Below are positions 2,481 through 64,000 of a stretch of 64,000 nt of DNA, one piece after another. The stretch spans positions 225,856 to 289,855 of the forward strand of contig CAWEUW010000007.1 in assembly GCA_963812375.1 (NCBI GenBank), written 5' to 3'. A program made the translations under genes and the position numbers. The notes under the pieces were generated by a model that made no database searches, had not been told where the DNA came from, and saw nothing but the letters and a program-made list of their open reading frames with translations. Position 1 is the stretch's first letter, and every line of letters begins with the position of its first letter. The stretch comes from an uncultured Acidimicrobiia bacterium (GTDB lineage: Bacteria; Actinomycetota; Acidimicrobiia; Spongiisociales; UBA5794).

Positions 2481-3390
2481 CTACCGGTCCTCGCAGCCGA
2501 CCTCGCCGGGGAGCAGCGGGCGGGGCAGGAGCTGGATCTCCTCGGTGCCGGTGTCCCAGACGGTCGCCTGGGTGGCGTCGCCGAAGACCTCGGCGGCCGC
2601 CGCCGCGTCGGGGCCCTCGAGGATGGTGCAGGGGAGCCCGAAGCTGGTGTGCTCGAAGTCGGCGACGGCGACTTCGAGCGGGTAGGGCCGCACGTCCGGC
2701 GGTAGGCCGGTGTCGCCACCCGGGATGAAGTCGCCGTTCACCACCACCTGCCACCGATCGGAGGAATAGGGCTCGCCTGGTTCTCCCGAGAACGATGCGT
2801 CCTGCAGGGTGAGCATCAGGTCGTTGAGCGCCACCACCTTGGGGTCGCCTGTCTCTGCTTCCGGGTTGAACCCGAGGGCGTACACGCCGTACCGGTGGGT
2901 GCCGTTCTCGTCGAAGTAGGTGAGCACCGTCGTCGAGGCATCGGCCACGTTGCCCGCCGCCTGGTCGTCGATCTCCTCAGTGATGTCGGCGATGCCGATC
3001 CGGTCGAGGATCTCCTGAAGGTCGGGAAGCAGGTCGGCGACGTCCTTGGCCTCATAGGGGGGGACCAGCGGGCCCGGGAAGATCTCGGGTATGGCACCCT
3101 GATAGATGAGCTGGCCGTCGGTGGTCACCGTCGTAAGCAGGCCCCAGCGAGGCGAGCAGGGTCGGGGTCGAGAAACCCCCCTCGTACGTGATCATGAACA
3201 GCGGCTGGCCGGCATCGCCTCCGGCGCCGGACGTGGTGGGGTCGGGAGGGGCAGTCGTGCCGCCGCCATCGGTAGCGCCGCCGTCGTCTGAGCCGCTTGC
3301 GACGTCACCGCCACCACAGGCGGCCGCCACGAGGAGGAGTGCCAGCGATCCGGCGACGAGCCTGAGGGGGGATGTGCGTGCTGATGTCAT
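2481..3390 (-). CDS. hypothetical secreted lipoprotein; reading frame broken around 3050-3130
   Basis: ATG at 3390 gives MTSARTSPLRLVAGSLALLLVAAACGGG (signal peptide + lipobox). The protein continues in another frame as ORF 2481..3128 (GQLIYQGAIPEIFPGPLVPPYEAKD...). Confidence 0.45.
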
Positions 3391-3446
3391 GGCGCTTCGA
3401 CGGAGGCGGGCCGCGGTCCGGTTCCCGACTTCGGGGCCCGGTGCCG

Positions 3447-4689
3447 TCACCCCTGTCCGAAAGCGCCCCCTCGCCTCACCACCAGGTCGCCGTCGATGTC
3501 TGCCACCCGGCGGCATCCGATGAGCGCCATCGTCCGCTTCATGTCCGAAGCGAGCAGCTGCATGACGTGGTCCACCCCCGCCTCACCGGCGGCGCCGAGA
3601 CCGTAGAGGTAGGCGCGGCCGACCATGCAGGCATCGGCGCCCAGGGCGACCGCCTTGACGACGTCGCTCCCCCGCCGCACCCCGCCGTCGCAGATGATCT
3701 CGACCCGTCCCCCGACGGCATCGGCGACTCGCGGGACCAGGTCGAGGGGTGCCGGCGCCGAGTCGAGCTGCCGGCCCCCGTGGTTGGAGAGGGCGATCGC
3801 CTCCACGCCGTTGTCGGCGGCGATGAACGCATCGGCGACGGTCTGGATCCCCTTGAGGACAATCGGCCCTTTCCACCGTTCCCGGAACCAGGCGACGTCG
3901 TCCCAGGACAGCCCGGGGTCGAACTGCCGGCCCACGTACTCGGCCAGGCTGATGGCCTGCGCCCCGTCGCCGACGCCGAGGCCGGCAACGTTGGCGAACA
4001 AGATGGGATCCGACCGGACGAACCTCCAGGCCCATCCGGGGTGGATCGCCCCGTCGAGCAGCGTGGAGAGCCCCACCTTGGGCGGCAGGGTGAAGCCGCG
4101 CCGCACGTCCCGTTCCCTGCGCCCGAGCACCGCGGTGTCCACGGTGATGCACAGCGCCTCGTAGCCGGCTGCGGCGGCCCGCTCGACCAGCTCGGCGACC
4201 AGCCCCCGGTCGCGCCACACGTACACCTGGAACCAGAGACGATCCGACCCGACGGCGGCCACCTCCTCGATCGAGCGCGTCCCCAACGTCGACAGGGCAT
4301 AGGGCACCCCGGCCCGCGCCGCCGCCCGGGCCACGGCCAGCTCCCCAGGAGGGTCGGCAATGCGGGTGAAGCCGGTCGGGGCGAGCACGACCGGCATCGC
4401 CAGCGGCTTGCCCAGCAGCGTCGAGGAGATATCGACCTCGCCGACATCTCGCAGCACCCGGGGGGCGAACTCGACCTTGCGGAACGCAGCGACGTTCGAG
4501 GCCAGGGTCAACTCGTCCTCTGCTCCCCCGTCGATGTAGTCGAAGACGCCCCGGGGCAGCCGGCGCCGGGCGATCCGCCTCAGGTCGGCGACCGACGCCG
4601 CCCGTCCGCAGCCGGCGCTTCACCGGGTCGAGCTCGAACTTGCGGAGGTCGATCACCCCGAGAGCGCCGAGACGGCTCCGTATGGTCAT
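3447..4689 (-). CDS. FMN-dependent alpha-hydroxy-acid dehydrogenase (L-lactate dehydrogenase / glycolate oxidase family); apparent frameshift near 4570
   Basis: C-terminal 354 aa contain ...VLKGIQTVADA...SNHGGRQLD.... The N-terminus MTIRSRLGALGVIDLRKFELDPVKRRL (frame of ORF 3583..4689) joins the ADLRRIARRRLPRGVFDYIDGGAEDELTL frame after a 1-bp shift. The N-terminal arrangement resembles mycobacterial LldD2. Confidence 0.8.
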
Positions 4690-4780
4690 CCTCGGCTCAC
4701 CGGGCCCAGGCTAGGTCGGAAGGGCGGGCGAGCCCCGGTCGAGCGGGCGTGGCCTGGCATCGGTTGCCCTCGGCTGGTCG

Positions 4781-4797
4781 TGTGATGTAGTGTCACA
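4781..4797. promoter_or_regulatory. candidate CRP/GlxR-like palindromic site TGTGA-N7-TCACA in the divergent lldD-like / rhaT promoter region
   Basis: TGTGAtgtagtgTCACA sits inside a locally AT-richer stretch (gtgtgatgtagtgtcacatattacac) between divergent start codons at 4689 and 4925. The spacer is 7 rather than the canonical 6. Confidence 0.25.
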
Positions 4798-4924
4798 TAT
4801 TACACGGATGAACGTCGGGCCACCGGGCCGGCACGACGTCCGACGAGGGAGGAGCCGGCGTGACACGAGGTCGCCCGGAGCATCACACCCCAAGCCGGCC
4901 GGTGCCGCCGAACGGTGCCCGACG

Positions 4925-6430
4925 GTGACGTCACCGGAGAGCTCGCCCGGGCCGGTGTTGCGGATCGAGGGGCGTCTCCAAGCGCTTCGACGCCACCCAG
5001 GCGCTCGACGACGTGTCACTCGACCTCTACCCCGGCGAGGTCCACGGCATCGCCGGCGAGAACGGGGCCGGCAAGTCGACGCTGATCAAGATCATGACCG
5101 GCATCCATCCGGCCGACACCGGATCGATGACCATGGCCGGTGAGCCGTACGCCCCGCACAGCTCCGCCGAGGCTCAGCGCCACGGGGTGGCGGCCATCTA
5201 CCAGGAGCCGTCGATCTTCCCCGACCTCAGCGTCGCCGAGAACATCTTCATCGGGCACGAGGACCAGGGCTGGCTGGTCGACTTCGGCACGATGTACGCC
5301 GAGGCGGAGCGCCTCCTCACCGACCTCGACATCACCGTCAACCCCCGGCTGCCGGCGTCGGGCCTCACCGTCGGCGGGCAGCAGGCGGTGGAGATCGCCA
5401 AGGCGATCTCGCTCGACGTGCGGGTGCTGATCATGGACGAGCCGACCGCCTCGCTCTCCGCCCACGAGGTGGAGCGGCTGTTCCGCCAGGTCCGCCGGCT
5501 GCGCCAGTCCGGGGTGGCCGTGGTCTTCATCACCCACCGGCTCGAGGAGCTGTTCGTCATCGCCGACCGCATCTCGGTCTTCCGCGACGGGCGACGCATC
5601 TCGACCCGGTCGACCTCGGAGGTCACCGAGGAGTCGCTGGTCAGGGAGATGGTGGGCCGCGACCCCAGCGACTTCTTCTCCCGGGTCCACCAAGACCCTG
5701 GCGAGGTGCGACTGGAGGTGGACTCGCTGGGACGGGACGGCGTGTTCTCCGACGTCTCCTTCGACCTACGCGGCGGCGAGGTGCTCGGCTTCGCCGGCCT
5801 GGTGGGATCGGGTCGCACCGACATAGGTCTGGCCTTGTTCGGGGTGGCGCCGGCCAGCGAGGGGTCGGTCCGGCTCGACGGCAAGCCGGTGACCATCAAG
5901 TCGCCCCGCCAGGCGCTGGAGTTGGGGATCGCCTACCTCTCCGAGGACCGGCGCAAGCTCGGCCTGTCGATGTCGCAACCGGTCGCCGCCAACATCACCC
6001 TGGCAACCCTCGACCGGTACACCAACGGTCTGGGCCTGCTCGAGCGGGCCAAGGAGCGCGCCGACGCCGACGCCATGGGCAAGCGGCTGGACATCCGGAC
6101 GCCGAGCATGGCGACCCCGGTCGGCCTGCTCTCGGGCGGCAATCAGCAGAAGACGATGCTCGCCAAGTGGCTGAACGCCTCCCCCGGGGTGCTGATCCTC
6201 GACGAGCCCACCCGCGGGATCGACGTCGGCGCCAAGGCGGACGTGCATCGCTTCATCGACGAGCTCGCTCGCTCGGGGATCGCCATCATCCTCATCTCGT
6301 CCGACCTCCCCGAGGTCCTGGCGATGAGCGATCGAGTGGCGGTGCTGCGCGAGGGCCGGCTGCGGGCGATCTTCGACCGGACCGAAGCCACCGAGGAGAC
6401 GGGTCATGACCACCGCGGTGGGGGCCGCAT
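4925..6430 (+). CDS. rhaT: sugar (rhamnose-type) ABC transporter ATP-binding protein with duplicated ATPase domains; two 1-bp frameshifts (~4968, ~6410)
   Basis: Walker [10 protein letters not shown], signature LSGGNQQK and a second ATPase half. The N-terminus [16 protein letters not shown]|[23 protein letters not shown] needs removal of one G in a GGGG run. The C-terminus ...[12 protein letters not shown] is restored by removing one G in acgggtc. The stop overlaps the next ATG (ATGA). Confidence 0.75.
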
Positions 6431-7536
6431 GACCCAGCAGGCAACGACCGAGCGCGGTAGCCATCGCCGGCACCAGCACCTGGCTCCGGCCGGACCGGGT
6501 CAAGGAGCTGACGCTCCTCGGACTGATCGTGGTGGCGGTGCTGGTGTTCTCGCTGCTGGTCGACGACTACCTGAGCGGGCAGTCGTTCGTGAGGATCACC
6601 ACCACGGTGGCGATCGTGGCCATCCTCGCCGTCGCCCAGGGGCTGGTGATCATCAGCCGCAACATCGACCTGTCCGTCGGGTCGATCGTCGGGGTGGCCG
6701 CTTACCTCACCGGCGACTTCCTCGGCGCCTACCAGGGTGCCGGCCCGGTGGTGGCCATCGTGGTGGCGATGGTGGTCGGGGCGATCCTGGGATCGGTCAA
6801 CGGCGCGCTCGTCGCCTACGGAGGGGTGCCGGCGATCATCGTCACCCTGGGCACACTGGCCGGGTTCCGCACCCTGCTCAGCCTCTATTCGGGCGGCGTC
6901 AACATCACCGCCGCCTCGCTCCCCGATTGGGTGCTCGAGTTCTACAACCTCACCGTGTTCAACATCGGGGAGCTGGAGGTGCGCCTGGTATTCGTGATCG
7001 CCGTCGCCGTCGTCCTCGTCCTGCAGTGGATGCTGGGCCGGGTGCGCTGGGGGCGCCGGCTGTACGCCATCGGGTCGAACCCCGAAGCGGCTCACCAGGC
7101 GGGTCTCCCCGCCACGCGTCTGGTGTTCTGGTCGTTCGTCGGCTGCGGCGCCCTCGCCGGGCTGGCCGGCTTCCTGTACATGGCCAGGGTGGGGACGATC
7201 AGCGCCACCGCCGGTGCCGGGCTCGAGCTGGAGTCGGTGGCCGCCGCCGTGGTCGGAGGGGTGAGCATCCTCGGCGGCGCCGGCACCATGGTGGGTGCGC
7301 TCCTGGGGGCGATCCTGCTCGACACGCTCCGCCTCGGACTGTTGCGGGTCCCCGGCGTCAGCGAGTTCTGGCGCGACGCCTTCCTCGGTGTCCTCATCCT
7401 GGCTGCGGTCATCCTCGACGCCGCCCTGCACCGCCGTTTCGCCCGCCGCTGGTCGGCGGAGGCCAGGCGGGCTGCCGAGGACACCGGTACCCCGGTGGTG
7501 GCCGGGATGCACACCCTCGCCGGCGGGGGTGAGTCG
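6427..7536 (+). CDS. rhaP: ABC transporter permease (first of two), frame disrupted at N-terminus
   Basis: Multi-TM permease sequence [60 protein letters not shown].... The ATG overlaps the rhaT stop, but a frame change is needed within the first ~30 codons. No stop codon separates it from the second permease. Confidence 0.55.
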
Positions 7537-8614
7537 ATGGGTGACTGGGCCCGGGCGCATCGGTGGGAGGTCGTGTTGCTGGTGGTGCTGGCCGCCACCA
7601 TCGTGGTCAACGTGGCGCTGTCGCCCTTCTACTGGGGCGGTGGGAACTTCGTCAACCTGTTCTGGCTGTCGGCGGAGAAGATCATCGTCGTCGTCGCCAT
7701 GACCTTCGTCATCATCAACGGCGAGATCGACCTATCGGTGGCGTCGGTGATGGGTTTCAGCGCCGCCGTCCTCGCCTCGCTCCACGCCGGCGGGTCGGTG
7801 CCCTTCTGGCTGGCCATCGTCATCGCCCTGGTCGCCGCCGGGCTCGCCGGGGTGGTGCAGGGACTCGTGATCACCCGGTTTGGGCTGCCGTCGCTGGTGG
7901 TGACCCTGGCCGGGTTGATCGGGTTCCGGGGTGCCGCCCGGGTCCTCCTCGAAGACCGTTCGGTCGGCGAGTTCCCCGAGTGGTTCGACAGCCTAGGACA
8001 GCAGACGCTGGTGGGCCCGCTCCCCGTAGCGTTGGTGATCTTCGTGGTCGGGCTGGCGGTTGCCTGGATCACCCTCGGCCGAGGTGCATTCGGGCGCAAG
8101 GTCTACGTCAGCGGGGCCGGCGCCGACGTCGCCCGCTACTCCGGGCATCGACGTCTCCTGGCTCAAGCTCCGCCTCTTCATCATCTCCTCGCTGGCCGCC
8201 GGGCTGGCCGGGATCCTCTTCGCCGCCCGGCTCGGGTCGGTGCGGGGCAGCCTGGGCGAGTTCTTCGAGCTGGACATCATCACCATGGTCCTGCTCGGCG
8301 GGGTGAGCATCTTCGGCGGGTCGGGGACGATGCTCGGGGTGGCCCTGGCCATCTTCATCGTGCTCAACATCCGCAACGGCCTCGGACTGGCCAACGTCGA
8401 CGGGATCATCCAGACCGGTGTCATCGGTCTGCTCCTGATCGGGTCGGTGTTGGTCCCGAATATCGCCAGGCGAGTCCGCGATCGGCGCCCGGCGACGGAC
8501 ACGAACCCGCCGACGATTTCGTCGAGTGAATACCCAACGGAGGTGCCAAGCAACTGCAGATGTGATGTGAAGGAGAGCCGACCGAGAGAAGGAGACATCG
8601 TGCGACAGCGATAG
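7537..8614 (+). CDS. rhaQ: ABC transporter permease (second), frameshift ~8140
   Basis: [25 protein letters not shown]...[13 protein letters not shown]... continues after a 1-bp shift (extra G in tccggg) as [31 protein letters not shown]...[13 protein letters not shown]. Confidence 0.55.
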
Positions 8615-9797
8615 ACGACGCATCCCGGCGCCGTCGCCCTGGTGGTGCTGGCGATGAGTCGTAGCCGCATGTGGCGGTGGATGCGAGCCGACACGACCGA
8701 TCGCGAGGCGAGACACCACCGCTGCGGCGGCCACCACGCGTTGCCGCGGACACCACCGCAGCGGCGGACACCACGGTCGCGGCGGACCACCACGGCGGCG
8801 CCGGGAACCACGGTTGCGGCGGAAACCACCGTCGCTGCTGAAGGGCCGGTGAACATCAGCGGGGCGGATTCCATCACCGGTACGTTCCTTCCCAAGTGCA
8901 CCACCATCCTGTGTTCCCGCAGGCGAACGACGGCGCGGTCGAGGCAGCCGGAGAACTCGGCTCCGAACCCGACCGAATTCTCGGGCCCGCCGACTGCGGC
9001 GACGCGACGGCAGGATCGAGATCATGACCAACGCGGTCACCCAGAGCGTCGAGTCGATCATGGTGTCGAACAACGCGGGTGACAGCTGGCCCCGGCGGCG
9101 GCGGCCGCCGCCGGAGGCCGGCATCCCCGTGGTGAGCTGGGACTCGCCGATCCCATCGGCAGAGGGCGAGGCGTGTTCATCGCCCAGGTCGACTTCGACG
9201 GGACCGGCCAGGTGATGGCCGAGATGGCGCTCAGCATCCTGGGGGACGACGGTGGGCAGATGGCCATCCTGTCGGCGACCCCCGAGGCAGCGAACCAGAA
9301 CATCTGGATCGCCGCCATGGAGGAAGCTCTACCGATCCCGCAGTACGCCAACCTCGAGCTGGTCGACACCGTCTACGGCAACGACGTCCCGAGGACAGCC
9401 AGATCGCCGCAGCGGAGGCTCGCCGACGACACCCCGACCTGGAGCTGATCATGGCGCCGACGACCGTCGGCATCGTGGCGGCCGCCCAGGCGATGACCAA
9501 GCCGATGGATGTGAGCAGGTGAAGGTCTCCGGCCTGGGACTCCCCGACGAGATGGCGGAGTACGTCGAGAGCGGGTGCTCGCCGGAGTTCGCCTTGTGGA
9601 GCTTCGTCGACCTCGGCTACCTGGCCTACTACGTGGCGTACGGCATCGCCACCGGGCAGATCGAGGCGGCCGAGGGCCAGGCGTTCGTGGCCGGCCGGAT
9701 GGGTGAGTACGAGATCACCGCCGACCCGACCCGTGACGCCGGGCTGCGCGTGCTGATGGGCCCGTTCACCGTCTACAACGCCGACAACATCGGCTGA
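8591..9797 (+). pseudogene. rhaS: rhamnose ABC transporter substrate-binding lipoprotein, at least 6 frameshifts / one in-frame stop
   Basis: SD aaggaga + GTG 8591. Lipoprotein-signal fragments AVALVVLAMS / VVAACGGG. Then, spread over three frames: [242 protein letters not shown]. These match RhaS-type (TIGR02637-like) binding proteins. Confidence 0.65.
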
Positions 9798-9814
9798 TCG
9801 GCTGCCAGGGCCAT

Positions 9815-9841
9815 CCGGGCCGGGCCTTGCGCCCGGCCCGG
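9815..9841 (+). terminator. GC-rich hairpin (11-bp stem CCGGGCCGGGC/GCCCGGCCCGG, 5-nt loop) downstream of rhaS
   Basis: Perfect inverted repeat ccgggccgggc cttgc gcccggcccgg lies 18 bp after the rhaS stop. No U-tract, as is common in high-GC actinobacteria. Confidence 0.4.
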
Positions 9842-9928
9842 GTAGCCGGGCCAACCGCGAACGATCATGAGGATCCTACCATCGATCGCCCATCGGAGCC
9901 GGAGACGCCGGCGACCGGGAGGCGCACG

Positions 9929-52244: not shown

Positions 52245-52268
52245 TCTCCGCCGGACAGTCGGGGCGGA

Positions 52269-53745: not shown

Positions 53746-53774
53746 GCTATGTAGTATGTGGCATACTACATAGC
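53746..53774. promoter_or_regulatory. perfect AT-rich 13-3-13 palindrome GCTATGTAGTATG tgg CATACTACATAGC, 21 bp upstream of the SARP regulator start, in divergent intergenic region
   Basis: Exact inverted repeat within a ~70-bp AT-rich stretch (tcttctggaaagttctcctagacatgctatgtagtatgtggcatactacatagcagagaggg) in a 70% GC background. Confidence 0.5.
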
Positions 53775-53794
53775 AGAGAGGGAGAGAGAGCCTT

Positions 53795-54547: not shown

Positions 54548-54555
54548 CGGTCCCA

Positions 54556-54782: not shown

Positions 54783-54819
54783 CGTCGCTTCGGCCCGGCC
54801 GGGTGTCGTCGGGGTGCCG

Positions 54820-55074
54820 TTACTTGGGCGGCAGGCTCTCCGCGTAGGCGACACCCTGGTCGATCCAGGCCGCCAACGCGGCGTCGTCGGCGAACCCGTC
54901 GGGAGAGACCACCACCCATCCCCGCATCGGGCGCTCCCCCATGTCGAAGATGCGGGCCCCGGGCCGGGACACCGCCTCGTCGTGGGCGTCCTTGCCGACA
55001 CGGACCATGAGCGAGTCACCGCTGACCCCGACCGCCATGTTGCCGTCGACCAGGAAGGCGATGCCGCCGAACAT
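54820..55074 (-). CDS. TfoX/Sxy N-terminal-domain protein
   Basis: MFGGIAFLVDGNMAVGVSGDSLMVRVGKDAHDEAVSRPGARIFDMGERPMRGWVVVSPDGFADDAALAAWIDQGVAYAESLPPK* matches the TfoX_N domain. Confidence 0.7.
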   Translation of the reverse strand: MFGGIAFLVDGNMAVGVSGDSLMVRVGKDAHDEAVSRPGARIFDMGERPMRGWVVVSPDGFADDAALAAWIDQGVAYAESLPPK

Positions 55075-55199
55075 CTCCTTCTCGGACAGCCCGCGGCGCG
55101 TCCCGAGGTGGGCGCGAACGTCGTCGGCGAGACCCTGCGTCGTACGCCACGACCCCGATGCTACGCCGGGGCGTGGCGCCGTCGCCCGACCGCCTCATC

Positions 55200-56160
55200 T
55201 CGCCGGCGGTACGCTTCGCCACCGTGCCCGCCGTTGCGCCGATCCGTTACGCCCGCTCCGGCGAGCTGGACATCGCCTACCAGGTGATGGGCGACGGCCC
55301 CATCGACATCGTGGGGATGATCGGCTGGGTCTCCCACCTCGAGGTCCTGGTGGAGCTCCCCGAGGCGGCTCATTTCATCGACCGGTTGGCGGCGATGGGT
55401 CGGCTGGTCGTCTTCGACAAGCGCGGCACCGGGTTGTCCGACCGGCCGACGAAGGCGGCCACCATACGAGCGAGATGGTCCCTGATGTGCTGGCGGTGAT
55501 GGACGCCGCCGGCATGGAGCGGGCCGCCCTGCTCGGGTGGGCGGACGCCGCCGGGTTGGCGATGACCGTCGCCGCCCGGCACCCGGAGCGGGTCAGCGCC
55601 CTGGTGCTCGGCGAGACCCTCGCCACCACCGTCGCCGACCAGACCCACCCGTGGGGCTTGGACCCGGTGACAATCCGGGCGGTGGCCGACGCCATCGAGG
55701 GCGGCATGTGGGGTCAGGCGATTGTGATCCCCTTCATCGCCCCGTCCTCCGCCGGTGGCACAACCTGCTCGAGACCCACCGCGTCGGAGTGCGGCGCCTG
55801 CTCACCCGCCACGGCGGCACCGAGGTGGACACCGCTGGCGATGGCTTCCTGATCACGTTCGACAGCCCCACCAGCGCCATCCGCTGTGCCCTCGCCATGT
55901 CGGCGGGCAGTCGGGCCGACGGGCTCCCGGTGCGGATCGGCATCCACACCGGCGAGGTGGTCCAGCAGGGCGCCGACGTCACCGGAATGGCGGTGCATAT
56001 CGGCGCCCGGGTTTCCGCCCTGGCGTCCGGTGACGAGGTCCTGGTGTCGGGAACGGTGCGCGACATGGTGATCGGGTCCGGATTCACCTTCACACCCAGA
56101 GGACGACACCAGCTCAAGGGTGTGCCGGGCGATTGGGAGTTGTTCTCGGTTGATCCCTGA
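55200..56160 (+). pseudogene. alpha/beta-hydrolase-domain + class III adenylate cyclase (CHD); at least 2 frameshifts
   Basis: ...IRYARSGELDIAYQVMGDGPIDIVGMIGWVSHLEVLVELPEAAHFIDRLAAMGRLVVFDKRGTGLSDRP | ...EMVPDVLAVMDAAGMERAALLGWADAAGLAMTVAARHPERVSALVLGE... | ...GVRRLLTRHGGTEVDTAGDGFLITFDSPTSAIRCALAMSAGSRADGLPVRIGIHTGEVVQQGADVTGMAVHIGARVSALASGDEVLVSGTVRDMV...*. Confidence 0.6.
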
Positions 56161-56180
56161 CCGTCGCCGCTACCGCCGGC

Positions 56181-56594
56181 TCAGTCCCAGACGGCGACGA
56201 TCACCGCCACGATCGAATAGGCGATCACCGCGTTCACCCCGTTGATCAGCCAGTAACTGGGCCCCTTCTGCTCGTAGAGCTGGCTCACCAGGGCGCCCAC
56301 CACACCGAAGCCGACCCCGAGGACCACACCGAGGGCGAGCCCGTCGCCGAAGCTGGTCGCCCCGATGCCCTCCGCCACCAGGGCGATGGCGACGGTCGTC
56401 ACCAGGTACCCGACGAACGTGGGTATCAAGACAGCGGCGAACGACCCGCCTTCTGCCGGGTCCACCTTGGCGGCGGCCTGCCACGCCTGGCTGATGGGCG
56501 GCACCGAGTACCAGATGGCGCTGAAGGCGAACCAGGCGACGGCGGCCACGACGACGGCGAGCCAGTTCAGGTCGCCGAGGAAGTCGAAGATCAT
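56181..56594 (-). CDS. DUF1761-like small integral membrane protein
   Basis: gaggag SD + ATG 56594. MIFDFLGDLNWLAVVVAAVAWFAFSAIWYSVPPISQAWQAAAKVD... four hydrophobic segments. Confidence 0.45.
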   Translation of the reverse strand: MIFDFLGDLNWLAVVVAAVAWFAFSAIWYSVPPISQAWQAAAKVDPAEGGSFAAVLIPTFVGYLVTTVAIALVAEGIGATSFGDGLALGVVLGVGFGVVGALVSQLYEQKGPSYWLINGVNAVIAYSIVAVIVAVWD

Positions 56595-56743
56595 CGAACT
56601 CCTCTCGCTGCTACCTGGAACGCTACCCGCCGCCTCGCCGTCGATCGGGCTTCTCCTGAGGGCGCCGGGCATCAACGACGCCGCGGCGGGTGGGGTTACG
56701 ATCCGCCGATGGTGCTCGGCGAGGTCTGTGACAGGGCACTTCG

Positions 56744-57897
56744 TTGACCGCCCCCGAGCCCGACCGTCCCGTCGCCGAGGTCGCCCGGCTCTTCGGTCGG
56801 ATGGGGCTCACCGCCTTCGGCGGGCCGGCGGCGCACATCTCCATGATGCACGACGAGGTCGTGACCAGGCGGCGATGGCTCGACGACCGGCACTTCCTCG
56901 ACCTCATCGGGGTCACCAATCTCATCCCGGGGCCCAACTCGACCGAGATGGCGATGCATGTCGGGCATCAGCGAGCCGGATGGCGGGGACTGCTCGCCGC
57001 CGGCGTCTCTTCATCGTGCCGGCGGCGCTGATCACCCTCGCCTTCGCCTGGGCGTACGTCGAGTACGGCAGCACCCCCGGCGGCGAGGCGGTCCTGTACG
57101 GCATGGAGCCGGTGGTCGTGGTGATCATCGCCCAGGCACTTGTCAGGCTCAGCCGCTCGGCGATACAGGGATGGCTCAGCGGCGCCATCGCCGTCGCCGC
57201 CGCCATCACCTATCTGTTCGGGGTCAACGAGTTGCTCATCCTGGCGGTCGGGGCGGCCCTGGTCCTCGTGCTCCGGACTTCGATCCGGTCCGACCTCCTG
57301 GCCTTGGCCGCGGTGGGTGCCGGCGGCTGGGCGGCAGCCGAGGTGGCCGGCACCGACCAGATCTCGCTCGGCCGGCTGTTCCTCGTGTTCCTCGAGGTGG
57401 GAGCCTTCCTCTACGGGGGCGGCTACGTGCTTCTCGCCTTCCTGCAGAACGACCTGGTCGACCAGCTGGGGGTCCTGACCCAAGACCAGTTGCTGGACGC
57501 CGTCGCCGTCGGCCAGCTGACCCCGGGACCGGTCTTCACCACGGCGACCTTCGTCGGCTACGTCCTCGCCGGCCTTCCCGGCGCCGTGGTGGCAACCGTC
57601 GGGATCTTCCTCCCCGCCTTCGTGTTCGTCGGGGCGGTGACCCCGATCGTCCGCCGTATCAGGGACCGGGTATGGACGGCGGCCCTGCTCGACGGGGTCA
57701 GCGCCGCCGCCCTGGGACTGATGGCCGGCGTGACCCTCCAGCTGAGCCGGGATGGCCTGGTCGACCCGCTCACCGTCGGGATCGCCGCCGTGGCCGCGCT
57801 GCTCCTGTGGCGTACCCGGGTCAACAGCGCGTGGCTGATCCTCGGGGGAGCGCTGGTCGGGCTCGCCGCCGAGGCCCTCGGTTCCGTCCCGACGTGA
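56744..57897 (+). CDS. chrA: chromate transporter (two fused CHR domains); frameshift ~57010
   Basis: TTG start. LTAPEPDRPVAEVARLFGRMGLTAFGGPAAHISMMHDEVVTRRRWLDDRHFLDLIGVTNLIPGPNSTEMAMHVG... then (+1) LFIVPAALITLAFAWAYVEYG...VGAFLYGGGYVLLAFLQNDLVDQLGVLTQDQLLDAVAVGQLTPGPVFTTATFVGYVLAGLPGA.... Confidence 0.75.
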
Positions 57898-58016
57898 GCC
57901 TGCGTTGGACGCACGCGGACAGGGGCGATCCGCCAATCAGGTAGTTGCACCAGGCATGGCCGGCGGGCAGCGGTTCCGGTAGCGTCTGGGTTCACCGAGC
58001 CTCGGGAGGGCACACC

Positions 58017-58430
58017 GTGAGCGTCATCGTCGGGTATCTACCGACCAACCGGGGCCAGGCCGCCGTCGATCTGGCGATACGTGAGGCGAAGCTGCGCAAC
58101 ACCGACCTCGTGGTGGTCCATTCGATCCACGGCGATCGGCGGCACGACGACGATGACGCCATCGCCAGCGACCGTGACCTCGCCGCACTCGACAAGCAAC
58201 TCGCCGCCGAAGGCATCGAGTACGCCGTGCACAACTACGTACGGGGGAACGAGCCTTGCGAGGACGTCGTTCAGGCTGCGAAGGACTTCGACGCCGAGCT
58301 GGTCGTCATCGGGCTGCGCAAGCGGACGGCGGCGGGGAAGTTCTTCCTCGGCTCGAACGCGGACGACATCATGATGAACTCTCCGTGTCCGGTGCTCGAC
58401 GGTCAGGGTCGAGCACGCCAAGGAGTGAGG
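58017..58430 (+). CDS. universal stress protein (UspA family); frameshift ~58395 at C-terminus
   Basis: GTG. VSVIVGYLPTNRGQAAVDLAIREAKLRNTDLVVVHSIHGD...AELVVIGLRKRTAAGKFFLGSNADDIMMNSPCPVL then (+1) TVRVEHAKE*. Confidence 0.65.
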
Positions 58431-58465
58431 GCCGGTCTCCGGTCCAGACGACCCGGCGGCGCCGG

Positions 58466-58786
58466 TCACGCCCCCGGAGGCCGGAAGGCGACCTCGGTCG
58501 AGCCGATCCTGTCCATCTCCTCCGGGGTGATGAGGACGGTCGTCTTCATGGTCCCGGCGCCGCTGGCCGACACCGAAGTGGACACGGCCCCGGCGGCCAC
58601 GTTGTCGGGTAGGTCGGCGACGACGATGACATCCGTGCCACCGAAGGCGAAGTAGAAGGCCTCCACGGTCCCTCCGGCTCCGGTGACGGTGGCCTCGATG
58701 GCCGCTCGCCGCCCGGTTCCCCCCTCCTTGCGCAGTCCGCTGATCCCCTGCTGGGAGAGGGCGCCCTGGAACAGGTACTTCGGCAC
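58466..58786 (-). CDS. GYD-domain protein
   Basis: GTG. VPKYLFQGALSQQGISGLRKEGGTGRRAAIEATVTGAGGTVEAFYFAFGGTDVIVVADLPDNVAAGAVSTSVSASGAGTMKTTVLITPEEMDRIGSTEVAFRPPGA*. Confidence 0.65.
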   Translation of the reverse strand: MPKYLFQGALSQQGISGLRKEGGTGRRAAIEATVTGAGGTVEAFYFAFGGTDVIVVADLPDNVAAGAVSTSVSASGAGTMKTTVLITPEEMDRIGSTEVAFRPPGA

Positions 58787-58931
58787 GTGGAGTCCTTCGT
58801 TCGGGTGGTCGATGGTAATCAGCGGGATCTGCGCCCGACCAGATGATGGGAAGGTGCCTGGCAAACGTCCATCGGGTCGCTCCTACCGTCCCTTCCGCTG
58901 ACCGTGCCGGCGGTCCTCGGCGGGGGTGCGG

Positions 58932-59759
58932 TCAGGTCGTTGCGCTGGGCAGGCGGCGCAGCCCGTCGACCAGTTCGGCGCCGGCCTCCTCGCCGAGGAC
59001 GTCGAAAGACCGCTGGGCGAAGGCGTTGGTGTCGTCCTCGATCGCCTCGCGCACCCGCCGTCCCCGGGCGGTGGGCCGCGCCGGATCCGCCTCGGCGTAA
59101 CCCCGCTCCACCAACGAGGCCAGCCCGGGCCGATCGGCCTCGACGGTCTCGTCTTGCCACAGCGCGGTGAACACCGGCATCTCCGTTGCGGTCAGGTGCC
59201 GGCCCAGCCAGGCGGCCGCGTGGTCGTGCTGGCGCACGTACCGGAGCGTGATCAGCCGACGAAGCAGCCGGGCGGCGGGGTCCTCGGGCTCGGCGATCTG
59301 GCGATGCGCCACCGCAACGAGGTGGTCGGCAGGAGCGGCCGCGCCGACGCGGGCGGCGTGGTCCGACACCGTCGCCATCAGCTCGGGATGCGGTCCCCAT
59401 ACCGACGACACCACGCTCGCCTGGGCTTCGGCGATGGCGTCCAGCAGCGGCACCATGCGCTCGGTGGCGGCGTAGGTGTCGTCTTCCCGGCGTACGGCCA
59501 GGCCCTTCTCCACCAGGCCGGCGAGATGGCCGGTGACCATCGCCGGGTCGGCGTAGCGCATCCGGAGGGTGGCGATCTGCTCGGTGAGCACTCCTGCCTG
59601 GAGGAACGGTGCCACGTTGGTGGGCAGAGGAGCCACCCCGTCGAGCCCGAGCTCGGCGGCGATGCCACGAAGCCGCTCTCCATGCAGCTGCCCGACGCCG
59701 GCATTCGCCGAGAGCACCAGTCGGTCGATTTCGGGGGCGGCGAACCGGGCCGTGCTCAT
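58932..59759 (-). CDS. hypothetical protein
   Basis: MSTARFAAPEIDRLVLSANAGVGQLHGERLRGIAAELGLDGVAPLPTNVAPFLQAGVLTEQIATLRMRYADPAMVTGHLAGLVEKGLAVRREDDTYAATERMVPLLDAI... uninterrupted 275 aa. No domain recognised. Confidence 0.4.
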   Translation of the reverse strand: MSTARFAAPEIDRLVLSANAGVGQLHGERLRGIAAELGLDGVAPLPTNVAPFLQAGVLTEQIATLRMRYADPAMVTGHLAGLVEKGLAVRREDDTYAATERMVPLLDAIAEAQASVVSSVWGPHPELMATVSDHAARVGAAAPADHLVAVAHRQIAEPEDPAARLLRRLITLRYVRQHDHAAAWLGRHLTATEMPVFTALWQDETVEADRPGLASLVERGYAEADPARPTARGRRVREAIEDDTNAFAQRSFDVLGEEAGAELVDGLRRLPSATT

Positions 59760-59846
59760 GTCCCCGGACGATACCCGCCTCCACTCAGCCTGAGGTTCTG
59801 GCATACCGGAGCGGTATGCGTGAACCTCAGGTTCGGAACCCTCTCG

Positions 59847-60676
59847 TCAGTATCTCGTGGAGAGCGTGGCGGCGTACTCGGCGAGCAGGTCGGCGCCATC
59901 GGCGACCACCGGCTCGCCATGGCCGAACAGGATCGTCTCGAATGGATAGCCGGCCAGCTTGAGCACGCTCTGCCGAGCCTGGGCGTCGTCGGCGGTGAAC
60001 TCGGGGTTGGAGCCGGAGACGGTGGCACCGTCGTCGCCGCCGGACAGGGCGTCACCGACCACGAGGACACCGGTGTCGGGGTCGAGCACCGAGATCGACC
60101 CGGCGGTGTGACCCGGGGTCTCGATGACGGTGAGCCCCATGACCTCCGACCCGTCGCCCACCGCCATCAGGTCACGGGGGGCGTCGATCGAGCCGATGTC
60201 CGCCTCGCCGGCGTAGAGGGTGGCGGCCGAGGCGAGCTCGGCGGCGGCACCGAGGCCTCCCGACGTGGTCCGAGTGGTGGTGGGTCAGGATGATGTGGTC
60301 GACCTCGGCCCACCCCAGCCCGGCTTCGGCGAGCGCCGTCTCGATCGCCGCCTGACCTCCGTCCACACCGGTGTCGACGATCGCCGCCCGACCGCTCCGG
60401 TTCGAGGATGTACGCCGAGACGAACACGAAGGACGCCCTCGTCCAGGTGAGGGGCCCGGCGGCCGCATCGGTCTCGCCGGCGGTGGTCGAGGTGGCGGAA
60501 CCGGCCGCGTCAGGTCCCCCGGTGGTCGAGGTGACCCGGAGCGTCGACCCGGGCTCGACCGCCGGGTCGCCACAAGCGGCGACGCCGAGCACGCCGACCG
60601 CCAGGGCGCCGCTCCCCACGGTCCAGATGAACCGCCGGCGCTCGATCACCCGGCTCTGGTGACGCATCGGAGCCAT
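59847..60676 (-). CDS. MBL-fold metallo-hydrolase with Tat/lipoprotein-type signal; two frameshifts (~60290, ~60400)
   Basis: MAPMRHQSRVIERRRFIWTVGSGALAVGVLGVAACG (RRxF twin-arginine + lipobox) | ...RAAIVDTGVDGGQAAIETALAEAGLGWAEVDHIILTHHHSDHVG | ...MAVGDGSEVMGLTVIETPGHTAGSISVLDPDTGVLVVGDAL...FGHGEPV.... Confidence 0.6.
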
Positions 60677-60721
60677 CGCCGCAGGAGTACGAAGGAGGCT
60701 TCCCCCCGGTTCGCCACGTTC

Positions 60722-61095
60722 AGTCGTCCTCGGAGAGGGGCGCCAGCACGCAGAACTCGTTGCCTTCGGGGTCGGCCATCACCACCCAGCTCACCTCACC
60801 CTGGCCGATGTCGACCCTGGAGGCACCGAGCGCCTCGAGTCGGCGCCACCTCGGCGACCTGGTCGTCGGGCCGCAGGTCGAGATGGACCCGGTTCTTCAC
60901 CGTCTTCGCATCGGGCACCCTGAGGAACAGCAGGTCAGGCGACACCCCGTCCTCGGGACTGCCTTCCGGCGGCTCCAGGACGACCTCGTCATCGTCCTCG
61001 AAGGTGATCCGCCACCCCAGGGCCTCCGCCCACCACGCCCCGAGCGTTGACGGATCGGCGCAATCCACCGCCCAGTTCTGCATCCGCAACGACAT
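60722..61095 (-). CDS. VOC/glyoxalase family protein; frameshift ~60830
   Basis: MSLRMQNWAVDCADPSTLGAWWAEALGWRITFEDDDEVVLEPPEGSPEDGVSPDLLFLRVPDAKTVKNRVHLDLRPDDQVAEV then (shift) ERLEALGASRVDIGQGEVSWVVMADPEGNEFCVLAPLSEDD*. Confidence 0.55.
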
Positions 61096-61201: not shown

Positions 61202-62908
61202 ATGTCCGAAACACCCCCTCCGCCTCGTTCCGTCATCGTGGTAGCGGTCCGCGACGAACAGCGCGCCGACCAGGTGGCGACCGAGCTGCGGAGACGGTAT
61301 GACGCCGACTACGAGGTGCGCGTGGCGAACACCGCGGGCGCGGCTGCCGCCGTCGTCGACGAGGTGTGCGCCGCAGGCGGGACCGTCGCCCTGTTGCTGG
61401 CCGACGACGCGTCACCGCTCGAGTCGGACGTCAGCGTGTTCGTCCACGCCCGCCGGGTATTCCCCGACGTGCGGCGCGGGCTGCTGGTCGAGTGGGGGGC
61501 GTGGGCCGACCCGGTCGAGTCGCAGACCGTGCTCGGGCTGATGGCGGAGGGCCACATCGACTACTACGTGCTCCGCCCCTGGCGCACCCCCGACGAGTAC
61601 TTCCACCGGACCGTCACCGAGTTCCTGCTGGAGTGGGACCGCGCCTACGACCAGCGGGCGCGCGAGGTGACCATCATCGCCGACCCGTCATGGTCGAGGG
61701 CCCATGACCTGCGCAGCCTGCTGGGCCGTGCCGGGGTTCCCCACGCCTTCCGCGACATGCGTTCGCCCGAGGCGAGCCAGCTGCTCGACGCGCTCGGGGA
61801 GCCACCGCCCGAGGCGCCTCTCCTCGTGCTGCACGACGGCCGGGTGCTGCGCGACCCCAGCAACGTCGAAGCCACCCAGGCCTACGGGCTGCCCACCGAG
61901 CTGCCCGAGGTCGACGAGGCCGACGTCGTGGTGATCGGCGCCGGGCCCGGTGGGCTCGCCGCCGCCGTCTACGGTGCCTCCGAGGGGTCTGACCACCGTC
62001 GCCGTGGAACGCGACGCCATCGGAGGCCAGGCCGGCTCGAGCTCGCTGATCCGCAACTACCTCGGGTTTGCCCGGGGCATCGGCGGGGCAGAGCTGACCC
62101 AACGGGCCTACCAGCAGGCCTGGGTGTTCGGCACCCAGTTCTCACTCACCAGGGAGGCGGTTGGCTTGCGGCAGGAGAACGAGCGGCTGGTGGTGTCGTT
62201 GGCGCCCGACGGCGAGCTCCGCACCAAGGCCGTGGTCCTCGCCACCGGGGTGTCGTACCGGCGCCTCGGCGTCCCCGAGCTGGAAGCGAGCGGCGGGGTC
62301 TTCTACGGCGCGTCCAACTTCGAGGCGAAACAGCTCGAGGGCCGGGTGGCGCACGTCGTCGGCGGCGGCAACTCGGCGGGGCAGGCGGCGCTCCACCTGG
62401 CTCGCTTCGCCAAGGCGGTCAGCCTCCTGGTCCGCGGCCAGGCGCTGGCCGAGAGCATGTCCGCCTACCTCATCGAGCAGCTCGAGGCCGCCGGGGTCGA
62501 GGTCCGGCTCAACGCCGAGGTGATCGGGGGCGGAGGCACCGACGGCCTCGACCACATCGTGGTGCGGGACCGCAAGGAGGGCACCGACACCACCATCCCC
62601 ACCGACGCCCTCTTCGTGCTCATCGGCGCATTGCCGCAGACCGGATGGTTGCCTCCCGAGGTACGGCGCGACCAGTGGGGGTACGTGGTCACCGGCGACG
62701 ACCTGCTCCAGGACGAGGGTGCGCCCAGATGGCCGCTGGAGCGGGACCGCACTTCCAGTTCGAGACGTCGCTGCCCGGGGTCTTCGCCATCGGCGACGTG
62801 CGACGGAAGTCGGTCAAGCGGGTCGCCTCGGCGGTCGGCGAAGGATCGGTCGTCATCTCCAGCGTCCACAACCACCTGGCACACCTCGAGGGCCGCCTAC
62901 CGACATGA
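61202..62908 (+). CDS. fusion of an N-terminal receiver(CheY)-like domain with a thioredoxin-reductase-like FAD/NAD(P) pyridine-nucleotide-disulfide oxidoreductase; frameshifts ~61985 and ~62745
   Basis: ggggag SD + ATG. MSETPPPPRSVIVVAVRDEQRADQVATELRRRYDADYEVRVANTAGAAAAVVDEVCAAGGTVALLLADD... then ...EADVVVIGAGPGGLAAAVYGASEGL | TTVAVERDAIGGQAGSSSLIRNYLGF...GGGNSAGQAALHLARFAKAVSLLVRG... | PHFQFETSLPGVFAIGDVRRKSVKRVASAVGEGSVVISSVHNHL.... The position of the TrxR CATC redox motif reads FYGAS (no cysteines). The stop overlaps the next ATG (ATGA). Confidence 0.7.
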   Translation: MSETPPPPRSVIVVAVRDEQRADQVATELRRRYDADYEVRVANTAGAAAAVVDEVCAAGGTVALLLADDASPLESDVSVFVHARRVFPDVRRGLLVEWGAWADPVESQTVLGLMAEGHIDYYVLRPWRTPDEYFHRTVTEFLLEWDRAYDQRAREVTIIADPSWSRAHDLRSLLGRAGVPHAFRDMRSPEASQLLDALGEPPPEAPLLVLHDGRVLRDPSNVEATQAYGLPTELPEVDEADVVVIGAGPGGLAAAVYGASEGSDHRRRGTRRHRRPGRLELADPQLPRVCPGHRRGRADPTGLPAGLGVRHPVLTHQGGGWLAAGERAAGGVVGARRRAPHQGRGPRHRGVVPAPRRPRAGSERRGLLRRVQLRGETARGPGGARRRRRQLGGAGGAPPGSLRQGGQPPGPRPGAGREHVRLPHRAARGRRGRGPAQRRGDRGRRHRRPRPHRGAGPQGGHRHHHPHRRPLRAHRRIAADRMVASRGTARPVGVRGHRRRPAPGRGCAQMAAGAGPHFQFETSLPGVFAIGDVRRKSVKRVASAVGEGSVVISSVHNHLAHLEGRLPT

Positions 62909-64000
62909 CCGGTCAGGCCGCCGGCCCCGACCAGCCCCTGGAGGGGATGGGGGGGACCGGCCCGACCCCGGCGTCTCCGGACCGCCGGCGGCTGGTGACC
63001 GCAGCGGTCCTCTTACTGATCCCGATCTTGGGGCTCGCCCTGCTCATCGCCCGCCCCGAGCTCGACAAGGAGTGGCGTCACCAGCCGGCGCACTTCTGGT
63101 TGGTGCTGACCGCCGCCGCCATCAACGTCGCCCTCGCCTACGGCACGGGAGCCGCCGCCCGCCGCAGAGGCGACGCCCGGGTGTTCCTGGTCTCCCTGGC
63201 TTTCCTCGCCGCCGCCGGGTTCCTCGCCCTCCATGCGCTGGTCACCCCGGGAGTGTTGCTCGCCGCGCCGAACGCCGGCTTCATCATCGCCACCCCCATC
63301 GGGTTGGCGGTGGCATCGGTGTTCGCCGCCGCTTCCAGCGCCGATCTCGGTGAGCAGCGGGCGCAGGCGTTGATGCGCCACTCCGGGCTCATCCAGTGGT
63401 CGTTGATCGCGGTGATGGCCGCCTGGGCGGTCGCCTCGCTGGCGCACTTGAGGCCGCTCGACGATGCCACCGTCGCCGAACGTGCCTCGGGGGCGATGGC
63501 GGTGATGGCGGTCGCCGCCGTGATCCTGTATCTGGTGGCGGTGGTGCGCTACCTCCGGGTCGCTCGACAGGGGACCTCGTCGCTGCCGCTGTCTTTTGCG
63601 GCGGCATTCACGCTCCTGGCCGAGGCGATGGTCGCCGTCACCCTTGGTCGCGGACTGGCACGTCTCCTGGTGGGAGTGGCACCTCCTGATGCTCGCCGCC
63701 TTCGTGGTGGTGGCGGTGTCGGCGCAGCGGTCGTGGCGCGAGGAGCGCTGGGTGGGGTTGTACCTGCCCGACACCGCCTCCGCACAGCGGGAGTCAGCGT
63801 GGTGTTCGCCGACCTCCAGGGGTTCACCGCCTTCTCCGAGCGGCACACGCCGCAGCAGGTGAGCGCCATGCTCAACGCCTACTTCAGCGAAGCCATCCCT
63901 CACGTGGTCAAGCGGTTCGGCGGTGAGATCGACCGGTTGGTAGGGCGACGCCATGATGGTGACCTTCAACACCCGCGGCGACCAACCCGACCATGCCCAG
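62905..64000 (+). CDS. membrane-anchored class III adenylate cyclase (3' end outside window); frameshifts ~63640, ~63790, ~63945
   Basis: MTGQAAGPDQPLEG...RRRLVTAAVLLLIPILGLALLIARPELDKEWRHQPAHFWLVLTAAAINVALAYG... (6 hydrophobic helices) then ...GVSVVFADLQGFTAFSERHTPQQVSAMLNAYFSEAIPHVVKRFGGEIDRLVGDAMMVTFNTRGDQPDHAQ in shifted frames. Confidence 0.65.
   Translation, partial: MTGQAAGPDQPLEGMGGTGPTPASPDRRRLVTAAVLLLIPILGLALLIARPELDKEWRHQPAHFWLVLTAAAINVALAYGTGAAARRRGDARVFLVSLAFLAAAGFLALHALVTPGVLLAAPNAGFIIATPIGLAVASVFAAASSADLGEQRAQALMRHSGLIQWSLIAVMAAWAVASLAHLRPLDDATVAERASGAMAVMAVAAVILYLVAVVRYLRVARQGTSSLPLSFAAAFTLLAEAMVAVTLGRGLARLLVGVAPPDARRLRGGGGVGAAVVARGALGGVVPARHRLRTAGVSVVFADLQGFTAFSERHTPQQVSAMLNAYFSEAIPHVVKRFGGEIDRLVGRRHDGDLQHPRRPTRPCP

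Follow-up and report, generated by a model that had tools for sequence, protein, structure and literature searches.

The dense frameshifts that interrupt genes in the window, i.e. the whole analyzed stretch of 64,000 nucleotides, are almost certainly not a biological feature. With high confidence they can be attributed to errors in the consensus sequence of a metagenome-assembled genome (MAG) built from long reads, probably from Nanopore reads alone, and not to mutations in the organism. The window was compared with four close Acidimicrobiia MAGs (approximately 90-98% nucleotide identity), which identified hundreds of indels private to the window, mainly 1-bp insertions. A blastn alignment of positions 2426-19533 with the syntenic relative L001 (91.1% identity) contained 184 gap openings, with 103 1-bp insertions and 44 1-bp deletions in the window. 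At least two independent relatives covered 30,730 positions, within which all relatives agreed against the window at 69 indel events, among them 48 insertions and 14 deletions of one bp. A strict-gap set obtained by global realignment held 89 one-bp insertions versus 25 one-bp deletions and no deletions longer than 2 bp; the insertion to deletion ratio in the window is about 3-5:1. The stretches at 36.5-43.1 kb and 59.8-64 kb, for which no close DNA relative was found, were assessed by a coding-frame model, split Pfam domains and one 92%-identical protein.

The initial annotation had described the frameshifts as dense and strongly non-uniform, and this was borne out by the counts of non-3n indels in 102 bins of 500 bp (index of dispersion 4.9; chi2 = 493, df 101, p = 7e-53). 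It had also argued correctly that a uniform error rate cannot give this pattern, since the errors form blocks with sharp edges. Two dense blocks (8541-19447 and 31586-35093) contain about 10-40 indels per kb; outside both, the density is approximately 1 indel per kb and the region 20.5-31.5 kb is almost free of them. Against L001, gaps per kb amount to 0-4 across 1-8 kb and to 10-24 across 8-19 kb, and between 31.5 and 35 kb two independent relatives gave the identical result of 6-7 insertions per 500 bp. Base composition was ruled out as the cause of the blocks, as the GC content is 0.69-0.73 in dense and clean stretches alike.

Block 1 (8541-19447) spans nine genes on both strands and holds approximately 170 indels relative to L001, chiefly 1-bp insertions. 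Its onset is abrupt: below position 8500, 0-3 substitutions and no indels were counted per 100 bp, and 4-7 indels per 100 bp beyond it. The block contains rhaS, rhaD-ADH, rhaI, rhaB, DeoR, rhaM, a histidine kinase, a response regulator and two small ORFs, with gene names confirmed by NCBIfam on the intact proteins of the relative. On the plus strand, indels were found in rhaS (8622-9794; rhamnose ABC substrate-binding protein; 23 indels), in rhaD-ADH (9830-11952; bifunctional rhamnulose-1-phosphate aldolase / short-chain dehydrogenase; 34-41 indels) and in rhaI and rhaB (12015-14628; 15-16 and 11-24 indels). The minus strand encodes the histidine kinase and the response regulator (15888-17978; 13-14 and 8-9 indels). 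In the strict-gap global realignment, 23 indels were assigned to rhaS, 34 to rhaD-ADH, 15 to rhaI, 11 to rhaB, 13 to the histidine kinase, 8 to the response regulator and 12 to the ECF sigma factor gene of the second block. The counts first proposed (at least 6 frameshifts in rhaS and at least 3 each in rhaD/ADH, rhaI, rhaB, kinase and ECF genes) underestimated the magnitude. Block 1 was comparable with L001 only, and the polarity of its events rests on the intactness of the L001 genes; the L001 orthologue of rhaD-ADH, for example, matches NCBIfam NF006188 in a single stretch (positions 7-663 of 679).

Block 2 (31586-35093) covers glyoxalase, ECF sigma, flavin reductase, 225-aa hypothetical and luciferase-like genes. 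Its 3454 comparable bp contain 38 window-specific indel events (32 insertions and 6 deletions), and the gaps recur in comparisons with L081, L082 and L084. The ECF sigma factor gene (32143-33175, plus strand) alone carries 12-13 insertions and no deletions. The block starts in a non-coding stretch, and the 3.5 kb directly upstream (28-31.5 kb) contain no window-specific indels.

In the sparse regime at 2481-8540, 1-bp events are located at 3128 (+C), 3285 (-C), 3289 (+T), 3441 (-T), 4607 (+C), 4972 (+G, G-run), 6399 (+A), 6457 (+G), 7533 (-T) and 8145 (+G, G-run), the first three being confirmed against two genomes. Window-specific indels in the nearly clean stretch at 19448-31585 are limited to two compensating pairs (23750/23766, in a stretch scored as non-coding by the coding model, and 27952/27956, within DUF6855) and to the events at 27286 and 27669, the latter of which interrupts YjbQ. 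One insertion at 20337 was seen against L081 only. No indels were present in the genes for FAD oxidase, AKR, membrane cyclase, CoA-transferase B and PEP mutase, and the two indel events found within the subtilase are attributable to the relative and not to the window. A second sparse regime (36111-58807) contains 1-bp window-specific events at 36111, 36502, 43888, 45420, 46126, 46831, 47245, 47301, 49796, 50385, 51714, 51754, 53312, 53693, 53793, 55137, 55151, 57010, 58397 and 58807, each visible against 3-4 independent genomes.

Among the genes initially annotated as intact, the subtilase, AKR, FAD oxidase and membrane cyclase kept this status. For MmpL this was not the case: an inserted C at 47301 replaces the C-terminal tail (47125-47301, minus strand), a second inserted G follows downstream at 47245, and the product has 766 aa versus 745 aa in the relatives. 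The public protein P0247 is exactly the same 766-aa MmpL including the frameshifted tail, which places the indel in the deposited assembly; the window AKR is 100% identical to P0250. Both public proteins are encoded on one contig of 738,707 bp (NCBI and ENA), which clusters with the MAGs deposited as ENA ERZ25039xxx. The cyclase/AAA_16/TPR gene was likewise called intact, and here a 1074-aa ORF and a 332-aa ORF in another frame overlap by 173 nt (37624-37797, minus strand). A frameshift near 37797 is probable; the TPR matches in the 332-aa ORF are weak and below threshold. According to Pfam, the metallo-beta-lactamase and Glyoxalase_6 genes (59862-61026, minus strand) are each divided between frames: frame -0 holds Lactamase_B positions 19-58 and Glyoxalase_6 positions 18-74, and frame -2 holds Lactamase_B positions 106-196 and Glyoxalase_6 positions 76-106. 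Finally, a gene for a thioredoxin-reductase-like FAD oxidoreductase (61202-62905, plus strand) needs its frame corrected twice, near 61985 and near 62745. A tblastn search with P0252, a 567-aa JGI protein, yielded three HSPs in frames 2, 3 and 2 at 91-96% identity and without stops.

The sequence context of the indels did not agree with the statement that many of them lie at G/C homopolymers, as the share of inserted bases located in runs does not exceed the chance expectation. Only 7.8% of the 1-bp insertions are found in runs of at least 3, versus 12.5% of background positions, and the polarized event list agrees. In addition, the inserted base is distinct from the bases on both sides in 76% of the 1-bp insertions, versus 55% of background positions. 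Homopolymer-length sequencing error was rejected on the basis of this missing run enrichment. When the G-run sites named in the initial annotation were checked against the relatives, two of them were verified: the one at approximately 4968 corresponds to an extra G at 4972 (GGGG versus GGG) and the one at approximately 8140 to an extra G at 8145 (GGG versus GG). At approximately 6410 there is no G-run event, and the insertions near this site are an A at 6399 and a G at 6457; at 15265-15275 there is no event, the closest being an inserted G at 15249. The few isolated extra G residues (4972, 8145, 46831 and 34558) resemble the homopolymer errors of 454, Ion Torrent and early Nanopore sequencing, but the window as a whole differs from these by its lack of run enrichment and by inserted bases that mostly differ from both neighbours. 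A programmed frameshift or a phase-variable contingency locus was also rejected, because 8-34 shift sites per gene in arbitrary contexts were found, whereas such a locus should have one shift site per gene, at a slippery sequence or an extended simple repeat.

The possibility that the rhamnose cluster, the two-component system, the ECF sigma region and other loci are real pseudogenes undergoing locus-specific decay was judged to be very improbable. The frameshifts do concentrate in particular loci, and many adjacent genes carry multiple frameshifts, as in the reductive decay of Mycobacterium leprae and recent host-restricted bacteria. Moreover, the 15.5-kb rhamnose/two-component island that holds block 1 is entirely absent from the relative L081; the island may thus be dispensable, so that real decay would not be an unreasonable assumption for it at the outset. 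Nevertheless, decay of the M. leprae type should be accompanied by relaxed selection, nonsense codons and a deletion bias, none of which is seen in the window. The dN/dS comparison proposed earlier for the broken genes was carried out on frame-projected sequences and gave values that were not elevated (0.17-0.23 in the dense blocks versus 0.13-0.26 in clean regions). Third-codon-position bias is retained within the dense blocks, with substitutions at codon positions 1/2/3 of 6.0/5.0/17.9% against L001 and 4.2/4.9/14.8% against L081. The window-specific substitutions by codon position are 3.2/2.9/11.1% in block 2 versus 1.45/1.07/3.63% elsewhere, which is an equal ratio. No in-frame stop was found in 4340 frame-projected codons (3228 + 1112), where random placement of the same substitutions produced 12.5 stops (never fewer than 4 in 300 trials) and 3.3 stops, respectively, i.e. 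approximately 16 expected under unconstrained substitution.

The indels themselves also argue against decay. In bacterial pseudogenes deletions typically predominate, and genuine insertions of 1 bp mostly copy a neighbouring base, whereas insertions exceed deletions here and 76% of the inserted bases do not duplicate a neighbour. The ratio of indels to substitutions is too high as well: neutral-phase divergence in block 2 is approximately 0% (at most approximately 1%) versus 1.1% indels, which is roughly ten times too many indels. The blocks cross unrelated genes on both strands, and block 2 begins in non-coding sequence after 3.5 indel-free kb. The lesions are not common to the close relatives, and each sister MAG has different private indels. 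Taken together, equal dN/dS, third-position bias, the lack of nonsense codons, the insertion excess and the private nature of the indels led to the rejection of decay. The real genes of the organism in both blocks are almost certainly intact and under purifying selection, and should be read as such. This matters for annotation, as gene calls, pseudogene counts, coding density and metabolic inference from this contig will be wrong without frame correction, and could lead to false conclusions, e.g. that the organism is unable to use rhamnose or has lost an ECF sigma factor. The true proteins can be recovered by frame-aware comparison to a close relative.

The two options initially offered were genuine decay and a coverage-dependent consensus error such as homopolymer indels, and of these an assembly or consensus artefact is supported, without the homopolymer mechanism. 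The closest genomes are ENA ERZ25039456, ERZ25039494, ERZ25039555 and ERZ25039591, plus OY970227.1 'MFD06229.bin.1.171', which is a MAG of the Microflora Danica long-read catalogue. Neighbouring accessions suggest that the ERZ25039xxx relatives come from Microflora Danica too, and the window itself, judged by its cluster mates, probably belongs to the same Nanopore project. The sister MAGs have 27-53 private indel events each, mostly of 1 bp, and their gene calls also contain split genes, with MmpL being split in L085 and L086. One of them, L086, shares the insertion bias of the window and has a private cluster of 12 events within 500 bp (window-equivalent 59122-59610). Nanopore consensus errors are usually deletions in homopolymers, unlike the insertion bias without homopolymer link in the window.

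Microflora Danica used Nanopore reads only, assembled with Flye (--meta --nano-hq) and polished by one Medaka round (PMC12313526). Indels are the commonest error type of Nanopore MAGs and frameshift correction alters low-coverage contigs most (PMC8103633). The window resembles such Nanopore-only MAGs in that private 1-bp indels split genes while the proteins stay highly conserved (PMC8103633; Kastor, PMC12007338). Consensus errors in these MAGs are worse where support is poor, and the relatives of the window were produced by Flye and Medaka without short-read polishing (PMC12313526). The window differs from them by its insertion bias, by the missing tie to homopolymers and by sharp kilobase-scale blocks at approximately 10 times the baseline in place of an even distribution. 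A baseline of approximately 1 private 1-bp indel per kb extends across the whole window, at a level similar to that of the sister MAGs, over which the regions 8.5-19.4 kb and 31.6-35.1 kb carry approximately 10 times more. The error level in the blocks is near that of raw reads, with approximately 1-2% indels, largely single inserted bases at arbitrary positions. Most likely, the consensus in the blocks was supported by no more than a handful of reads or even a single one, or else polishing remained without effect, so that the draft sequence may have survived; a dependence of the errors on coverage is plausible. The blocks run across the boundaries of genes, operons and strands, and their edges are sharp. 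As errors in MAGs of this kind can cluster strongly in kilobase blocks, a genome-wide average quality value hides them.

A variant of the artefact explanation invokes a cause other than low depth, namely that reads of at least two co-occurring strains were combined in one pile-up and that spurious indels were introduced during polishing. We regard this variant as possible but rather unlikely. Collapsed alleles are reported to be a source of apparent frameshifts in long-read consensus sequences (PMC8445201). In block 2 the divergence of the window-lineage allele is approximately 3 times that of the other regions, block 1 lies within the strain-variable island and is more divergent from L001 (dS 0.26 versus 0.10), and by eye several insertion sites (e.g. 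35093, 34623, 49796 and 45420) resemble two adjacent alleles. However, insertions beside relative-variable sites were not significantly enriched (33% versus 23% background, p = 0.15), and the subtilase region (28-31.5 kb) shows 6-11% window-specific divergence and yet no indels. The correlation of divergence and indels per bin was weak (rho 0.25, p = 0.07), and together with the subtilase region this led us to reject divergence alone as the determinant of indel density.

As the comparison genomes are long-read MAGs too and have frameshifts of their own (e.g. in rhaI and DeoR of L001 and in MmpL of L085 and L086), the errors could in principle sit in them and not in the window. This reading has a negligible probability and is effectively refuted by the polarization against multiple genomes, as up to four independent genomes concur against the window at each polarized site. 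Their genes are full length with one-stretch NCBIfam/Pfam matches, and P0252 bridges the three frame pieces of the window. In tblastn searches with orthologous proteins, all three frames were needed for the window copies, although this method fuses short stretches that are out of frame and does not reach the precision of the DNA alignments.

Within the consensus-error explanation, a minority of the indels might still be real, either because the window strain very recently started to lose the 15.5-kb island or because the G-run events at 4972 and 8145 or the +G in MmpL are lineage-specific inactivations, which we consider quite improbable. A +G in MmpL at the window-equivalent position 47998 is common to the sister MAGs.

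Viterbi segmentation by codon usage gave 191 segments for the window and 82 frame switches between directly adjacent segments on the same strand, which is far above what gene junctions alone would yield; the same codon-usage model gave 2-20 switches per 21-22 kb in related loci. With a stitched rhaD-ADH fragment as the query, a single scan of species-representative genomes identified OY970227.1 (isolate MFD06229.bin.1.171, uncultured Acidimicrobiia bacterium; locus L001) as the closest relative, with 84% amino acid identity and synteny to window positions 958-19533. Further loci were added through protein searches followed by contig look-ups, namely L082 and L083 from the same genome, L081 and L085 from ENA ERZ25039456 contig_58914, L084 from ERZ25039494 and L086 from ERZ25039591. 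Combined, they span positions 606-36680 and 43115-59804 of the window (GC content 64-73%) and were merged into four independent genomes for assigning indels to an assembly; 36.5-43.1 kb and 59.8-64 kb are without a close DNA relative among these genomes. The blastn alignment of 2426-19533 to L001 (91.1% identity) contained 184 gap openings, including 103 1-bp insertions and 44 1-bp deletions in the window, with 0-4 gaps per kb at 1-8 kb and 10-24 per kb at 8-19 kb. At 31.5-35 kb, comparison with L081 and with L082 gave the same counts, 6-7 additional bases in the window per 500 bp; at 43-59 kb the figure was 0-5 per 500 bp. The index of dispersion for non-3n indels per 500 bp was 4.9 (102 bins; chi2 = 493, df 101, p = 7e-53). 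The dense and strongly non-uniform frameshifts reported in the initial annotation were thus confirmed, as was the need for many corrections per gene, but its counts were too low: strict-gap global realignment gave 23 indels in rhaS (at least 6 in that annotation), 34 in rhaD-ADH, 15 in rhaI, 11 in rhaB, 13 in the histidine kinase, 8 in the response regulator and 12 in the ECF sigma factor gene.

To which assembly these lesions belong could be read from the relatives. Every covering genome agreed against the window at 69 indel events (30,730 positions with coverage from two or more of the four genomes); 48 are insertions of one base and 14 deletions of one base, and a few are 2, 7 or 8 bp long. 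Local alignments showed up to six loci from four genomes united against the window, and the relatives' genes are full length by both gene calls and family models; the lesions are therefore the window's own. They also sit in the public record, since database protein P0250 is identical (100%) to the window AKR and P0247 (766 aa) matches the window MmpL, frameshifted tail included, bar one mismatch. Each relative has its own 27-53 private indels, mostly of 1 bp, and the MmpL, AI-2E transporter and TetR genes are split in the L085 and L086 gene calls, so that the private frameshift set differs in every assembly of the population. In L086, 12 private indels, mostly of 1 bp, are clustered within 500 bp (window-equivalent 59122-59610), the same block-type phenomenon elsewhere in the sequence. 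L001 changes frame inside rhaI and the DeoR regulator (L001 11715/11716 and 13847/13848), and even this circular 3.25-Mb MAG thus holds a few frameshift errors. One extra G in MmpL (window-equivalent 47998) is common to L085 and L086, which are sister MAGs from different samples, and cuts the protein into 479/502-aa and 240/211-aa pieces; on a third contig a 235-aa MmpL fragment ends at the same place (proteins at this site: P0244, P0246, P0249), and the window is intact there. The shared G could be a genuine frameshift of one lineage or a systematic error that recurs at this position.

The dense indels lie in two blocks, 8541-19447 and 31586-35093, the second of which holds 38 window-specific indels in 3454 bp, compared with 29 in 26,856 bp elsewhere (polarised counts). 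The limits of the blocks disregard genes, strands and cluster membership. Block 1 crosses plus-strand rhamnose catabolism genes, the minus-strand two-component system and two small ORFs, and the transporter genes of the same rhamnose cluster (4.9-8.5 kb) are nearly free of indels; block 2 begins at 31586 in non-coding sequence, and the 3.5 kb before it lack any window-specific indel. NCBIfam models run on the intact L001 proteins confirmed the gene identities (RhaS, RhaD_aldol-ADH, RhaI, rhamnulokinase, DeoR, mutarotase, histidine kinase and response regulator). No indels were counted in the genes for FAD oxidase, AKR, membrane cyclase, PEP mutase and CoA-transferase B. Of all stretches, the subtilase with HemolysinCabind-type repeats (28633-31580) has diverged most along the window's lineage (window-specific substitutions 6-11%), and it has no window-specific indel; this makes it an internal control, showing that frameshifts do not follow from divergence. 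Among the genes initially called intact, FAD oxidase, AKR, membrane cyclase and subtilase are free of window indels, but in MmpL an extra C at 47301 alters the tail, and a second insertion, of a G, follows downstream at 47245. According to Pfam, a Lactamase_B domain is divided between two frames at approximately 60258 and a Glyoxalase_6 domain at 60840, and the alignment of a thioredoxin-reductase-like protein (567 aa, 92% identity) breaks into three stop-free parts, in frames 2, 3 and 2. There are hints that below 37797 the large cyclase/AAA_16/TPR ORF probably runs on in a different frame.

Gene decay and consensus error had both been proposed initially, and the first would make the broken genes real pseudogenes. 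The DNA alignment was used to project the relatives' reading frames onto the window, a step that takes the indels out. Substitutions at the three codon positions of the dense blocks amounted to 6.0, 5.0 and 17.9% against L001, 4.2, 4.9 and 14.8% against L081, 4.4, 2.8 and 13.8% against L082 and 5.2, 3.7 and 17.7% against L084; the blocks retain the third-position excess typical of purifying selection. The rise in dN/dS proposed as a mark of decay was absent, with Nei-Gojobori values of 0.214, 0.232, 0.169 and 0.176 in the dense blocks versus 0.13-0.26 in clean parts. No in-frame stop occurred in 3228 + 1112 projected codons, whereas the same substitutions scattered at random would give 12.5 (minimum 4 in 300 trials) and 3.3 stops. 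Window-specific substitutions have the same codon-position ratio in block 2 (3.2, 2.9 and 11.1%) as elsewhere (1.45, 1.07 and 3.63%), and solving for a neutral phase on top of a constrained phase with the clean-region ratio gave approximately 0% neutral divergence, at most about 1% with sampling error. Bacterial neutral sequence acquires roughly one indel per 5-20 substitutions, which predicts a handful in block 2 as opposed to the 38 counted. The indel spectrum is likewise unfit for natural decay, as insertions outnumber deletions (89 to 25 one-bp events in the strict set; 32 to 6 in block 2) and the inserted bases are mostly not copies of a neighbouring base. With selection maintained, stops absent and block edges indifferent to gene and strand limits, genuine decay is extremely improbable. 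The indels are private, window-wide and block-structured in sequence otherwise under purifying selection, and we regard them with high confidence as consensus error, not a biological feature, which is a warning on reading every CDS of this contig.

An association with G/C homopolymers, also suggested initially, was not found. Runs of at least 3 accounted for 7.8% of 1-bp insertions versus 12.5% of background positions, and "runs" of length 1 for 76% versus 55%; events polarised by several genomes showed no run association either. An extra G within a short G-run was seen at 4972 and 8145 (initially placed at ~4968 and ~8140). The supposed G-run event at ~6410 resolves into two insertions, an A at 6399 and a G at 6457, and the event closest to the proposed 15265-15275 is an inserted G at 15249. 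Private 1-bp insertions exceed deletions approximately 3:1 in the window, and sister MAG L086 is also insertion-biased. In its insertion bias and lack of homopolymer association, the window differs from what we would expect of Nanopore consensus errors as usually described.

P0247 and P0250 are both recorded on a 738,707-bp contig in NCBI and ENA. The other proteins in their 90% clusters derive from ENA assemblies ERZ25039xxx, and among named genomes a Microflora Danica long-read MAG is the closest; the window presumably belongs to this project. The Microflora Danica catalogue rests on Nanopore reads alone, assembled with Flye --meta --nano-hq and polished in one Medaka round but not with short reads, and its authors report a check for Nanopore-associated errors (PMC12313526). 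Indels are described as the commonest kind of Nanopore error, and correcting frameshifts as most important in low-coverage contigs (PMC8103633). The baseline of approximately 1 indel per kb would be the ordinary residual error of such an assembly, and the dense blocks (approximately 1-2% indels) probably reflect a consensus on one or very few reads, or ineffective polishing. In a variant of this explanation, reads of co-occurring strains piled up and created spurious indels. The window allele is indeed more diverged in the blocks and certain sites resemble two alleles in tandem, but insertions next to polymorphic sites were not significantly enriched (p = 0.15) and the neighbouring subtilase diverged without indels, which leaves strain collapse rather unlikely.

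Two regions differ in gene content among the genomes. The 15.5-kb segment 3520-19028, which encodes an LldD-like dehydrogenase, rhamnose transporter and catabolic genes and a two-component system, is present in the window and OY970227 and missing from ERZ25039456 contig_58914, where a clean junction truncates the genes on both sides and no repeat is obvious; the segment looks like an island that varies between strains. Region 36518-43114 has a GC content of 64-66% compared to approximately 70%, holds the large guanylate-cyclase/AAA_16/TPR gene and has no match above 80% nucleotide identity in the four related genomes, which have other genes there; it may be variable or acquired. At least four separate adenylate/guanylate-cyclase-domain genes are found in the 64 kb (24959-26176, 37798-40890, 43207-43881 and 63796-64000).
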